Positions 50,305 to 56,085 of a stretch of 56,103 nucleotides of DNA are shown one piece after another. The first letter of the stretch is position 1. Every line of letters begins with the position of its first letter. Made by a program: the position numbers and the translations under genes. The DNA comes from a virus (Duplodnaviria; Caudoviricetes). Under the pieces are notes generated by a model. It saw only the letters and a list, made by a program, of their open reading frames with translations, was not told the DNA's origin and made no database searches. Location of the stretch: positions 1-56,103 of IMG/VR virus record IMGVR_UViG_3300033076_000684, one strand, 5' to 3'.

Positions 50305-50353
50305 ATGTCTGCCCTATGTAATAATATAAACATATAAAGAAAGGGAAACTAAA

Positions 50354-50467
50354 ATGAAAAACTTCTTCTCAGACAACCTATATGTAATCCTTGCTGTAGT
50401 AGGGCTAATTGCTTTGGCTGTAGTAGAGTTAGCAATTGTTATCCACGAGTCTGGTGGCTTTATCTAA
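50354..50467 (+). CDS. Small membrane protein, 37 aa
   Basis: MKNFFSDNLYVILAVVGLIALAVVELAIVIHESGGFI; SD and promoter upstream. Confidence 0.7.
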   Translation: MKNFFSDNLYVILAVVGLIALAVVELAIVIHESGGFI

Positions 50468-50746
50468 GCCCACCTTCTGGGCGTGTCTACTTGACAAAAG
50501 CTCCGATCCCTGGTCGCCCCAAAATGTGACCTAAAACACATAAGAATGTCCGATTTGTCCCTTGACTTTTTGGACTATCTATGCTAGGATACTCCTATAA
50601 ACAATTAAATAAAGGACAGATAAGGTAATGAGCCTAATCAAATAAATGTGGTGTAAATCACAGTGAGCATTAGCAAATAAGTGCCCTATTTGTCAGACCC
50701 CTATGCTAGGATTTATCCTAGAAAGTTAAAAAGAAAGGACATAAAA

Positions 50747-50956
50747 ATGTCACTAGAAATATTCCGTATAGATGAAAACGGTGCTGGTTGGGTATCATTC
50801 GATGAGGCTACTACCTCAGAAAAACTTGATTTAGAATTAGCAATCTTAACTAATGCTAAAGTAACTCTACAATGTATCAAATGCCATGTAGAAATCCCTC
50901 GTGGAAATGTATGTGTTAATCACAAAGATGTGAAAGGTGCCGTTTATTTCGGCTAA
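50747..50956 (+). CDS. Early protein with C-terminal zinc-ribbon
   Basis: CIKC...CVNH; AAAGGA SD before ATG 50747. Confidence 0.75.
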   Translation: MSLEIFRIDENGAGWVSFDEATTSEKLDLELAILTNAKVTLQCIKCHVEIPRGNVCVNHKDVKGAVYFG

Positions 50957-50969
50957 AGAAAGGATAACT

Positions 50970-51146
50970 ATGTATAAAATAAGACTAGAAAGCTTTAATG
51001 GAAATGTTTCTACTGTATCTCTTCCTAGTGAAGAAAGTGTAAAACAATTCTTAGAACAATACCCTGCAAAACTTCCTAAAGGTGTTGCACTGCGTGTATC
51101 ATGTGATGCACTCTCTATTGTTGGTACCCTAGTAGGTACCGCATAG
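50970..51146 (+). CDS. Early hypothetical protein
   Basis: AAAGGA SD before ATG 50970. Confidence 0.7.
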   Translation: MYKIRLESFNGNVSTVSLPSEESVKQFLEQYPAKLPKGVALRVSCDALSIVGTLVGTA

Positions 51147-51288
51147 AGGTGCTTGACAAATGATCTAAAATGTGGTCGCCCCCCGTTATCAAATCGTTAT
51201 AATTAAATACACGACACGCCGATAAAAAGGCTTGACAATGTCTTACCCCTATGCTACTGTATAGGTATAGAAAGAAAAGGAACAGAAA

Positions 51289-51480
51289 ATGCTAAAAGGA
51301 CTTGCTTTTAACCCATACATCAACCACAACTCAACCCTAGAGGAAATCGAAACAGAGTTGTCTAGTCTGCTTGAGTATGCTGACAAGGTTCTAGATTGGG
51401 ATATCACAGACTATGAAGAAAAGCAACTAATGGCTTTGACCAAGTTGGCTAAGGCAAAAGGCTCAACCCGTAAGTGGTAA
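51289..51480 (+). CDS. Early hypothetical protein
   Basis: Promoter and AAAGGA SD. Confidence 0.7.
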   Translation: MLKGLAFNPYINHNSTLEEIETELSSLLEYADKVLDWDITDYEEKQLMALTKLAKAKGSTRKW

Positions 51481-51527
51481 ATGTCTGACCCTAATGCTAA
51501 ACTAAATACATAAAGAAAGGAAAACTA

Positions 51528-51761
51528 ATGAACAAGTTTCAGAATGTAGACAAAGACCTTCGTGTCTGTGTTTATTGCTACGGCACTACCTATGCGTATG
51601 TTTGCCCAAGTTGTAATGAGTATGACGGGCTAATGCCTGTAAACCAAGAAACCGAAGACTATCTAGGTGAAGACCTGCTAGAAATCGTTTCAGAAGAATG
51701 TGGCCGTTGTGGTCAGTTTGTTATCCCTAGTTCTCACCCTCAGATTGGATGTGACGCATAA
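51528..51761 (+). CDS. Early zinc-finger protein
   Basis: CVYC...CPSCNEYDGLM...CGRC...H...C. Confidence 0.75.
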   Translation: MNKFQNVDKDLRVCVYCYGTTYAYVCPSCNEYDGLMPVNQETEDYLGEDLLEIVSEECGRCGQFVIPSSHPQIGCDA

Positions 51762-51892
51762 TGATGTTCTATAACGGATTCAACCTATTGCTTGACATTG
51801 TATTTTGCTACATTGCGTTTCGTATTGGTAAGTCATTCGGATACTCAGAAGGGTATCGTGATGGCGAAGAGGATAACGCTCCACCATTCTAA
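51761..51892 (+). CDS. Membrane micro-protein ending EEDNAPPF, 43 aa
   Basis: Not in the ORF track; TAATG-coupled: MMFYNGFNLLLDIVFCYIAFRIGKSFGYSEGYRDGEEDNAPPF. Confidence 0.7.
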   Translation: MMFYNGFNLLLDIVFCYIAFRIGKSFGYSEGYRDGEEDNAPPF

Positions 51893-52179
51893 AAATACCC
51901 TGGCGTGTCAGCTTGACAAACTGATCCGCTTGTGGTCGCCCCCACGCTGTCGGGCGTGTCGTTATAAGAATGTTATAAAAAATGTCCGAATTGTACGGCG
52001 TGTCGTCTTGACTTTTTGGATTTTGTGTGCTAGTATTCTACTATAACAATTAAATAAGTAAAGATAATCCGTTATCAAAATGTTATCTAAATCACACGAT
52101 TTGGACTTGACTTTTAGAGAAATGTGTGCTAGATTTATCTTATTGAAATAAAGAAAGTCTCTTGAAAGGAGAACTAAAA

Positions 52180-52476
52180 ATGAAAAAGTTTCGTTCTATT
52201 GAAATCGGTTCTGATGTTGCGTTTTATTCTAACGCAGGTCGTAAGAAAATCGAAGGTTCAGAAAAGCCTAATGGTCAATTTCTAGCCCGTAAAATGTTCT
52301 ACACTAAGCCAATTGCTAATGGCGTAGTTGTAAAAATCAAGGGGCACAATGCCCACGCTTGCCAAATCACTTTTGATAATGGTAAGACTTTTGAAATGGG
52401 TTTAGATACTCACTACCACCTAAATGGTGAAATTGGTGATTGTGTTGCTCACCAAGACAATTACTCAATGTTGTAA
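52180..52476 (+). CDS. Early hypothetical protein
   Basis: GAAAGGAG SD before ATG 52180. Confidence 0.7.
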   Translation: MKKFRSIEIGSDVAFYSNAGRKKIEGSEKPNGQFLARKMFYTKPIANGVVVKIKGHNAHACQITFDNGKTFEMGLDTHYHLNGEIGDCVAHQDNYSML

Positions 52477-52526
52477 AATGTCAGACCTATAGACTATAAT
52501 AAGACTAATAAAGAAAGGACAACTAA

Positions 52527-54633: not shown

Positions 54634-54927
54634 ATAAAACCACGGCGTGTTGGCTTGACAGCTGGCACGTTTCGTGGTCGCCCCATTTCGGCTGATTTGT
54701 CAAGTTACGACAGCGTTATGAAACTGTGATCTTTTTCACCCGTTTTGGATTTGACTTTGTCGGTGGTCTATGGCATACTTATAGTAGTTGGAAATCAGCA
54801 GACAAAAAAAGTAAATAGTCGTTATCAAAATGTTATCAAAATAGACTTGACAATGTCGGTGGTATCCACTACAATAGTATTATCAACAAAAGTTGGTAAT
54901 AAAAAATACAAATAGAAAGAAGCAAAA

Positions 54928-55074
54928 ATGAACACTCTAACTGTTGGCTCACAGTTCACTACTAAGAAGTCAGGCGTATCTGGCACTATTCAGGAAATCG
55001 TGAAGAACCCTAGCGGTTCGTTCCGTGTCCGTCTAGATGTAAATGGACAGCCACGCTGGACTACTGTAAAGTAG
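54928..55074 (+). CDS. Small SH3-like beta protein, 48 aa
   Basis: MNTLTVGSQFTTKKSGVSGTIQEIVKNPSGSFRVRLDVNGQPRWTTVK; downstream of two promoters. Confidence 0.75.
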   Translation: MNTLTVGSQFTTKKSGVSGTIQEIVKNPSGSFRVRLDVNGQPRWTTVK

Positions 55075-55080
55075 TGTGAG

Positions 55081-55108
55081 TGTGCTGGGCATCACAATAA
55101 ACTGCCCA
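55081..55108 (+). ncRNA. Mini H-type pseudoknot element, copy 1
   Basis: TGTG/CACA and TGGGCA/TGCCCA crossing stems, AAAC linker. Confidence 0.6.
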
Positions 55109-55198
55109 CAACACACCACGCTAGAAGTGTATAAATGTCGTAGCAGTAGGATACAATAGTAATACAACCCCAAAAAGAAAAGAAAGAAAGGAAAACAA

Positions 55199-55645
55199 AT
55201 GGCTCGTTCGCTATCTGTAAAAATCCCAACCGCTTCGCTAATCGCAGAGGTTGAGGCACAAATCGTAAAGGTTGAGCAGGACATTGAGCAGTATGCTGAT
55301 AAGCGTAAGCAGTATGAGGCTGACGCAAAGCAGTATGAGAAAGATGTAATCGCTCACGCTATCAAGGCACTCAGCAACCCAGAAAACATTGGAACTGAGG
55401 CTGGCTCACTAATCCGTATCACTTCGTCTTACCGCTACAATGGTATTTCTGTTGAGTTTGATACTGAGGCACTAGGTTTCCCAAAGAAGCCTGAAGAACC
55501 ACAACGCCCAAATCAGCAGACTTACTATGGTCGTGATTACACCACCAAGTTGGACTTGCTGAAGAAGAACCTCAAGGTGCTGAAGATGACTCAGCAGGAG
55601 GAAGTCAATGCTTCCACTTACAACTCTGTAATGGAACTTCTCTAA
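55199..55645 (+). CDS. Early coiled-coil protein
   Basis: GAAAGGA SD; 148 aa. Confidence 0.8.
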   Translation: MARSLSVKIPTASLIAEVEAQIVKVEQDIEQYADKRKQYEADAKQYEKDVIAHAIKALSNPENIGTEAGSLIRITSSYRYNGISVEFDTEALGFPKKPEEPQRPNQQTYYGRDYTTKLDLLKKNLKVLKMTQQEEVNASTYNSVMELL

Positions 55646-55655
55646 CGAGAAACCC

Positions 55656-55686
55656 TGACCTGAGCAAGTCAATGCTAAACTGCTCA
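55656..55686 (+). ncRNA. Mini H-type pseudoknot element, copy 2
   Basis: TGAC/GTCA and TGAGCA/TGCTCA crossing stems, AAAC linker. Confidence 0.6.
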
Positions 55687-55718
55687 CTCTCACCCAACAT
55701 AGAAAAGGAAATAAATAA

Positions 55719-55910
55719 ATGGCAAAGAAGAAACTAGTAGTAGCAACTGAGGTATGGAATACTCAGGCTGGTCGTATCAGCAAGGCAGTAGTCCGCAACG
55801 CAGATGGCACTTTCAATGGTGCTACCAACCAGACTAAGGGTGTGCGTGTGCGTGCCAAGTCTGCTAGCCGTATCAAGCGGACTCCAAGTTTGTCGCTTGT
55901 TGGGCGATAG
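55719..55910 (+). CDS. Small basic early protein
   Basis: AAAGGA SD; VVRNADGTFNGATN. Confidence 0.7.
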   Translation: MAKKKLVVATEVWNTQAGRISKAVVRNADGTFNGATNQTKGVRVRAKSASRIKRTPSLSLVGR

Positions 55911-55915
55911 AGTAA

Positions 55916-55942
55916 TGTGCTGGGTATCACAATAAACTGCCC
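55916..55942 (+). ncRNA. Mini H-type pseudoknot element, copy 3
   Basis: TGTG/CACA and GGGTA/TGCCC (one G-U), AAAC linker. Confidence 0.6.
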
Positions 55943-56085
55943 CAAGCTCTGCTTGACAAATGGATCAGTTTGGGGCGACCCGTTTATAACGTTTTGATAA
56001 CATGCTTACGACACGCCCATATTAAGTTGACAAATGTCGTACCCCCTTGCTACAATTGAGGGTATAAAGAGAAAGAAGGAAAGAA

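Follow-up and report, generated by a model that had tools for sequence, protein, structure and literature searches.

Genome Context of the Early Block

The record IMGVR_UViG_3300033076_000684 of the IMG/VR database is a 56,103 bp stretch of viral DNA, the whole of which was analyzed and is referred to here as the window. At its right end lies a block of small genes with a recurring promoter element, a box with the core TGTC set at a fixed distance upstream of a normal -10 hexamer, and this box resembles the element read by the actinobacterial activator PafBC. The window is the entire virus record, has an estimated completeness of 52% (CheckV), and would represent about half of a complete phage genome of roughly 110 kb. 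Its left end truncates a gene for a DnaE-type polymerase and its right end a small gene; the GC (guanine plus cytosine) content is about 39%, and there are no tRNA genes. From position 1 to 49,000 the genes lie on the minus strand, and include those for replication (DnaE, a DnaG-type primase and a DnaB helicase) and for virus structure (portal, protease, capsid, a 2348 amino acid (aa) tape-measure-like protein and tail fibres). The block under study extends from about 49.9 kb to the end of the window, and its genes, some 20 in number, are small plus-strand ORFans.

The closest known phages are those of Streptomyces clusters BE/BK, with a portal protein of 45% identity across 99% of its length and a DnaE of 54% identity, while nucleotide similarity to them is confined to 77 bp. 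The plus-strand block contains a gene for a 238 aa GP88-family protein (53917–54633, plus strand; PF17338, phrog_1392), which is used here as the family marker, is shared with box-less sister phages and the Streptomyces BE phages, and is 46% identical to its homologue in phage Jay2Jay. With homologous portal, DnaE-type polymerase and GP88 proteins, the phage is a Stanwilliamsviridae-like relative of the BE/BK group, and a family-level placement near Stanwilliamsviridae is tentative given the low identities. In the genome of Jay2Jay, the GP88 homologue has small genes as neighbors and lies within the first 11 kb, and the terminal repeats of BE1 phages measure about 11 kb (PMC5764925); for these reasons, the plus-strand block is read as the probable counterpart of the BE/BK terminal early region, with the label 'early' resting on synteny and gene style.

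Box Promoters of the Early Block

A preliminary description of this DNA, made from its sequence alone, had listed eleven sites of the form TGTC[N][B]-N10-(T/C)ANNNT in the block, and all eleven were found where they had been placed, each with exact spacing. Within the region 49800–56103 (plus strand), the 11 matches to TGTCNB-N10-YANNNT compare with a mean of 0.63 (standard deviation 0.78, maximum 4) in 2000 dinucleotide-preserving shuffles. Over the entire window and both strands there are 23 matches versus 14.9 ± 3.7 in shuffles, the excess being confined to the early block. At ten of the eleven sites the -10 hexamer ends 6–52 nt ahead of a start codon; the remaining one, at 54758, is in tandem with that at 54854 and lies 148 nt ahead of the gene they share. 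The sites precede a Shine-Dalgarno (SD) sequence and start codon, except at the gene following 53393, which has no SD sequence. It is nearly certain that the box sites are real promoters of the sigma-A type.

Six of the sites lack a TTGAC element just upstream of the box. These are TGTCTG-N10-TAATAT (50306–50327; gene start 50354), TGTCAG-N10-TAGGAT (50691–50712; gene start 50747), TGTCTG-N10-TAAACT (51482–51503; gene start 51528), TGTCAG-N10-TATAAT (52479–52500; gene start 52527), TGTCAG-N10-TAAACT (52930–52951; gene start 52991) and TGTCGT-N10-TACAAT (55136–55157; gene start 55199), all on the plus strand. Other hexamers are found upstream at four of them, TTGCAA at 17 bp (52930), TTGTAA at 18 bp (52479), and TTGTAT (50306) and GTGTAT (55136) at 19 bp, while the site at 50691 has no -35 and that at 55136 has neither TTGAC nor an extended -10.

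The other five are hybrids, also on the plus strand, in which TTGAC(A/T) is found just upstream of the box: TTGACA with a 17 bp spacer, box TGTCTT (51239), TG and TACTGT (51232–51260; gene start 51289); TTGACA, box TGTCCC (53393), TGn and TAGTCT (53386–53414); TTGACT, box TGTCGGTG (54758), TGn and CATACT (54751–54779), the first of the tandem pair before the gene at 54928; TTGACA, box TGTCGGTG (54854) and TACAAT (54847–54875; gene start 54928); and TTGACA (18 bp), box TGTCGT (56035), TGn and TACAAT (56027–56056), ahead of a gene that starts at 56086 and is truncated by the contig end. This division into five and six, and the two TGTCGGTG-N8 copies followed by CATACT and TACAAT, agree with the preliminary description. 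An extended -10 TG is present at six of the eleven sites (50691, 51239, 51482, 53393, 54758 and 56035). At the second hybrid (region 53393–53423), the ATG of a gene for a 58 aa basic protein lies at 53421, only 6 nt past the -10, and the mRNA is probably leaderless, as is common for transcripts in actinobacteria.

Conservation of the Box among Related Phages

Related loci were retrieved by a GP88 protein search of IMG/VR, which matched at least 595 stretches, and 80 loci were kept. In these, the pattern of the preliminary description occurs 969 times on the gene strand versus 149 times on the opposite strand. The simpler pattern TGTC-N12-TAnnnT is present 910 times on the gene strand versus 154 on the opposite strand, and the other spacings from N6 to N19 give between 48 and 231 matches, with 48 for N11 and 51 for N13. 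At least five plus-strand box sites are found in 69 of the 80 loci. A sequence logo of 893 unique sites reads AAAA-TGTC, then A (55%; G 20%), G (82%), a/t, c/g, c/g, c, T, G (65%), n and TAnAAT, with the -35 region nearly flat. When sites were anchored on TGnTAnnnT alone, TGTC was found at -28 to -25 in 435 of 2023, the next most frequent 4-mer reached 35, and the minus-strand control gave 34 of 1394. Among 818 unique family sites, 558 score less than 4/6 versus TTGACA; an extended -10 accompanies 54%, a -35 with at least 4/6 matches 32%, and neither of these helper elements 30% (a figure inflated by chance matches).

The box is unchanged across three sublineages with GP88 identities of 88–97%, 70–80% and 64–70%, in which the most frequent 8-mers are TGTCAGAC, TGTCAGTG and TGTCGGTG, respectively. 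It is also unchanged in two contigs without the family marker (G408 and G410), which are distant members that have about one third of their open reading frames in common with the complete relative G001, at 24–76% identity. In G001 itself, 17 of 40 minus-strand sites cluster at 100.4–108.8 kb, the stretch that aligns with the early block of the window. Recent duplication was rejected as the source of the similarity, as TGTC and its distance are constant from site to site and the spacer sequences are not. The box is absent from Jay2Jay and from three sister loci with a GC content of about 50% (L019, L021 and L047), where the promoters are of the form TTGACA- or TTGTAT-17-TAnnnT. An unrelated family of box-using phages was not found in a pattern scan of viral contigs, which was not thorough (80 of 120 stretches read) and mostly returned the same family.

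Box-Less Promoters and Neighboring Features

Five canonical promoters without a box are interspersed among the box sites on the plus strand, and were absent from the preliminary description: TTGACT-17-TGC-TAGTCT (49897–49925; gene 49960), TTGACT-17-TGC-TAGGAT (50562–50590), TTGACT-17-TGC-TAGTAT (52008–52036), TTGACT-17-TGC-TAGATT (52107–52135; gene 52180) and TTGACA-17-TAAAAT (53864–53892), the last ahead of the GP88-family gene. Across the 80 loci, there are 910 box versus 333 canonical pattern matches, and between close relatives the two classes are swapped ahead of the same gene. Likewise absent from the preliminary description was a twelfth box, TGTCGG-N10-TATAAT, on the minus strand (5744..5723), which precedes the SD sequence and ATG of gene 5142–5693, at the head of the helicase-primase-DnaE operon. 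This site is conserved in neither of the relatives G001 and G004, and was not counted as part of the system. Directly ahead of the early block, on the minus strand, are genes for a small-domain methyltransferase (PF05175) and a collagen-repeat protein (48281–48973 and 46366–47154).

Resemblance to PafBC Promoters

As described in PMC8635444, PafBC is present in almost every actinobacterial species, and its promoters follow tGTCgg(N10)tA(N3)T as the consensus in vivo, in which the box occupies -28 to -23, the GTC is strictly conserved and read by PafB, and a -35 is missing; the helix-turn-helix (HTH) of PafC contacts domain 4 of SigA, which places the activator between DNA and sigma. Every one of the eleven window sites has a GTC-containing box at -28 to -23 and a fixed 10 nt between the 6 nt box and a SigA-type (T/C)ANNNT; six of them lack TTGAC, and five are hybrids. 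The promoter geometry recognized by the preliminary description is borne out, the phage box having the same core, position and spacing as the published motif, and the spacing being rigid throughout the family. In the form known as RecA-NDp, the motif is TTGTCRGTG-N8-TANNNT. A literature search of titles and abstract openings returned no description of PafBC-type boxes in phage promoters. The trigger by single-stranded DNA (ssDNA) that had been suggested for the early block is plausible in the light of PMC11804915, but speculative.

Candidate Phage-Encoded Readers

A phage-encoded WYL-domain mimic of PafBC, located outside the window, had been put forward as an alternative activator, and was not found: WYL domains were absent from the window (0/1) and from five complete relatives (0/5), and the HTH_PafC domain from the same number of complete relatives (0/5). 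Sigma70_r4 gave no match above cut-off in the phage genomes, and neither MotCF (PF09158) nor AsiA (PF09010), the T4-type factors, was detected in any of eight phage records (0/8 each, E ≤ 1). When ten early proteins were scanned against Pfam and PHROG, GP88 was the sole match.

Two adjacent genes in the block co-occur with the box. The first specifies a 48 aa core early protein (54928–55074, plus strand) and is found in 74 of 81 loci, and the second specifies a 148 aa core early protein (55199–55645, plus strand) and is found in 70 of 81. Both occur only in box-using phages, including all four of the longer box-using contigs (G001, G004, G408 and G410), and profile searches (E ≤ 10) detected neither of them in the three box-less sister loci or the terminal region of Jay2Jay. 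A confident AlphaFold2 model of the 148 aa protein (predicted local distance difference test score, pLDDT, 81.5) has a long helix, a small beta unit and further helices; it has no match in the PDB (Foldseek, E ≤ 0.001). Neither gene belongs to a known family or has a known fold.

These observations bear on the main rival explanation, namely that the box is read by an adaptor made by the phage, as in the sigma appropriation of T4 by MotA and AsiA. The box promoters would then form a delayed-early or middle class that awaits a phage activator, either a small protein or the 48 aa and 148 aa proteins acting as a pair, and this activator would be expressed from the canonical TTGAC promoters or enter the cell along with the virion. 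Such a scheme has a precedent in T4 (PMC8635444), and it would account for the side-by-side occurrence of two promoter classes (in the window, 11 box sites and 5 canonical ones), for the tracking of the box by the two core genes, and for the hybrid TTGAC-plus-box promoters of the 48 aa gene in the window; the early proteins, being ORFans, might also include a DNA binder. It meets a bootstrapping problem, however, since in three loci (L027, L035 and L036) both candidate genes lie behind box-only promoters that have no -35 and no TGn, so a phage-made activator could not start its own synthesis there. The genes behind the canonical promoters of the window are poorly conserved (8/81 and 7/81 loci), the box has stayed constant while the 148 aa protein drifts to 26% identity, and no homologue of MotA, AsiA, a sigma factor, WYL or the PafC HTH was found in the phage records searched, nor a DNA-binding fold match for the 148 aa model. 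Under this explanation, the match to the core, position and spacing of the PafBC box would also be coincidence or mimicry. Taken together, a phage adaptor is judged unlikely, although it is the strongest of the rivals.

Probable Host and the Presence of PafC

WhiB is present above the Pfam cut-off in all five complete relatives, and whiB is exclusive to Actinobacteriota and a key marker of actinophages (PMC10202952). With Streptomyces BE/BK phages as nearest relatives, and WhiB in 5/5 complete relatives, an actinobacterial host is supported. The window was detected in sequencing runs labelled as freshwater or aquatic metagenomes, and in one labelled as seawater; no RNA run was among them. The host would not be Mycobacterium, the 39% GC content and the freshwater or aquatic metagenomes pointing to an uncultured aquatic lineage.

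In a sample of 401 genomes from the phylum, a PafC-type HTH was detected in 312, and in 269 of these it scored above cut-off. Ahead of recA, TGTC-N12-TAnnnT is present in four of four genomes with a strong PafC match, three of which have a GC content of 37–42%, and in none of six with no match or a weak one; four of these six have a LexA-type palindrome instead, in several cases between TTGACA and the -10. WhiB was absent from 16 small genomes (0/16; the ten examined for recA and six others), and for this reason those of them that are low in GC and have both PafC and a recA box were dropped as hosts and serve as controls. A search with a single WhiB protein in five small genomes likewise gave no match. 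Rhodopsin-bearing genomes make up 37 of the 401, and those examined are high in GC. A scan of genome contigs with the phage WhiB matched only phage-like contigs (L102–L107), which carry WhiB of this family; they were found in metagenome-assembled genomes of unrelated taxa, titled Bifidobacterium, Polynucleobacter, Saccharibacteria, Acidimicrobiaceae, Arenimonas and Chitinophaga, and are probably mis-binned phage contigs.

CRP-Type Palindromes and Other Repeats

The early regions of the family contain a second motif, TGTGA-N6-TCACA, which is the CAP consensus (PMC10187061). There are 199 such sites in 48 of the 80 loci, while other spacings from N3 to N10 give 0–5. The next promoter downstream within 100 nt is a box promoter for 124 of the sites, canonical for 9 and a hybrid for 1, with none for the remaining 65. 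The distances from the palindrome to the end of the -10 show preferred values of 58, 68 and 79 nt, that is, helical phasing. In sequence and placement, the family sites resemble those of CRP/GlxR-activated promoters; the copies in the window are one-mismatch only. Seven of the latter occur in the early block, starting at 49871, 50525, 50647, 52081, 54725, 55081 and 55916, and six of the seven lie 47, 58 or 69 nt from the -10 end of the next promoter. For example, the palindrome TGTGACCTAAAACACA (50525–50540, no strand assigned) is 58 nt before the -10 end of the canonical promoter at 50562. No Crp-type HTH above cut-off was detected in five phage genomes (0/5). Because two independent host-regulator motifs are matched in the same promoters, a reading by host factors becomes likelier than a chance resemblance.

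Other repeats crowd the early block. A module of the form GGCGTGTC-N3-CTTGACAAA-N~13-TGGTCGCCCC recurs at 50480–50521, 51152–51182, 51902–51943 and 54644–54685, and in inverted form at about 55950–55980; the TTGACA within it is not followed by a -10, and its GGTCGCCCC part is present in both orientations. Direct repeats that resemble operators or iterons, GTTATCAAAATGTTATC, with two GTTATC units 11 nt apart, are found at 49860, 51185, 51960, 52070, 54714 and 54821, and inverted at 53341 and 55983. They adjoin promoters, often straight after GGTCGCCCC. A conserved upstream element, AATGTCCGA(T/A)TTGT, is located 20–60 nt before promoters, at about 50545 and 51983 in the window and also in distant members (L066, L053 and L060).

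Proposed Reading of the Box

The promoters of the early block of this freshwater actinophage, with a genome of about 110 kb, are of the sigma-A type, with a normal -10 (TAnnnT, often extended by TGn), and the box, (A)AATGTC(A/G)G at -28 to -23, lies beyond the direct reach of sigma region 4. An adaptor standing between the DNA and region 4 of sigma A may then read it, and such an adaptor is implied by the distance from TGTC to the -10, which is fixed at 12 nt with no slip tolerated, and by the loss of the -35. That some protein of the adaptor type reads the box is, from the promoter sequences, probable. The likeliest candidate is host PafBC, the ssDNA-activated WYL activator that reprograms SigA-containing RNA polymerase by sigma adaptation. 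It is favored because the box matches its -26 element, the host is actinobacterial, and the phage has no recognizable activator of its own. As an explanation, host PafBC appears the best of those considered, and we put its probability at about 0.45.

Three points of this reading are inference: the early firing of the sites, an adaptor at the box, and PafBC as the adaptor in question. The phased CRP-type palindromes suggest that a second host regulator is recruited upstream. An ssDNA trigger is a matter of speculation, and its source could be the processing of injected DNA ends, phage replication, or breakdown of the host DNA. In a wider and more tentative form, which we hold to be somewhat doubtful, a large family of freshwater actinophages, distributed worldwide, has rebuilt its early promoters from host parts, with the PafBC -26 box in place of the -35 and cAMP-CRP sites upstream, so that the first genes are fired by the damage and nutritional sensors of the host, the damage sensor perhaps being set off by the DNA of the phage as it enters or replicates.

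Several observations weigh against host PafBC as the reader. About 70% of the family box sites have an extended -10 or a -35 of at least 4/6, and because such helper elements are present at most sites, many could fire with sigma A alone, an activator perhaps not being strictly needed. That a gene may have a box promoter in one phage and a canonical promoter in a close relative fits better with constitutive than with damage-gated use. Jay2Jay and the three sister loci, which are also actinophages, do without the box, and the conserved 48 aa and 148 aa genes occur only in phages that use it. In the phage box, the first T and the upstream A-tract are near invariant, unlike the lower-case t of the published motif. 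The PafC HTH was not found in 89 of the 401 sampled genomes, including several small ones; the low-GC genomes with a recA box are probably not the hosts, given that they lack WhiB.

After the phage adaptor considered above, the next explanation is that the box is simply a strong local form of promoter, read by sigma A holoenzyme or another constitutive host factor and with no link to DNA damage. The free exchange of box and canonical promoters would suit this, and the TGTCA core of the box, when reverse-complemented, gives TGACA, the core of the -35. However, the -28 to -23 position leaves too little distance from the -10 for sigma region 4 to read it (PMC8635444), no general promoter element of this kind is described in the literature consulted, and among the genomes examined the recA box is found only where PafC is present; we regard this explanation as improbable.

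Least probable is that the box is an operator, with a phage or host protein bound to an asymmetric AAAATGTCAG site shutting off or gating early transcription from promoters that run on sigma A. The repressor of mycobacteriophage L5 likewise binds asymmetric sites, an extended -10 or a -35 that could be used accompanies most of the boxes, close relatives exchange box and canonical promoters ahead of one and the same gene, and other operator-like repeats are abundant in the block, yet occlusion would allow a shift of one or two bases, and the N11 and N13 spacings are at or below background versus the 910 sites of N12. In addition, about 30% of sites have neither helper element (e.g., 55136 in the window), and the -35 was lost specifically in the box-using lineage, the sister phages retaining TTGACA, which together make an operator very improbable. 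Among candidates that were rejected, an alternative sigma factor reading AATGTC as a -35 would have too short a spacer and no sigma gene was found above cut-off, and the motif resembles neither a LexA box nor a DnaA box, as judged from their consensus sequences.

Sigma adaptation of the PafBC type is so far known only for host DNA-repair regulons. If host PafBC does read the phage box, this would be, as far as the literature search shows, the first virus known to take over sigma adaptation. Early transcription of the phage would be tied to ssDNA sensing, and possibly to cAMP, and the family would offer hundreds of natural promoter variants (10–20 per genome) with which to dissect the PafBC mechanism, as well as a sequence mark by which uncultured phages could be matched to hosts that have PafBC. 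Should the reader be a phage protein, the family would represent a new system of sigma appropriation in Actinobacteria, with two candidate genes.

Comparison with Known Systems

The middle promoters of T4, which depend on a MotA box and AsiA, are similar in architecture only: the place of the -35 is taken by a box whose distance to a normal -10 is constant, and the promoters are set among canonical early ones. They differ in the sequence of the box and in the phylum of the host, and no homologue of MotA or AsiA was found in eight records of the present phages. The terminal early region of the Streptomyces BE/BK phages (Stanwilliamsviridae) is alike in having many small genes, each with its own promoter, arranged around a GP88-family gene. 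In contrast to the window, the promoters of Jay2Jay are of the form TTG(T/C)AT-17-TAGACT, with TGTC at the box position in just one of those read, its GC content is 53% versus 39%, and the 48 aa and 148 aa genes are absent.

Class I CRP (CAP/GlxR) promoters share with the phage family the TGTGA-N6-TCACA palindrome at helically phased upstream distances. The family sites differ in being paired with a -26 box and not with a -35, and their centres lie about 3 nt farther upstream than the E. coli positions, if the transcription start site is assumed to be 7 nt after the -10.

The remaining comparison is with the PafBC (RecA-NDp) promoters. Unlike these, the phage sites are carried on a viral genome, number 10–20 per early region, drive ORFan genes and not repair genes, often have an extended -10 (54%) or a partial -35 (32%), and are accompanied upstream by CRP-type sites. 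In common with them, the phage sites have TGTC(A/G)G at -28 to -23, exactly 10 nt before a SigA-type TAnnnT, with a -35 missing from many though not all of them, and occur in a phage of the same phylum as the bacteria in which PafBC operates.

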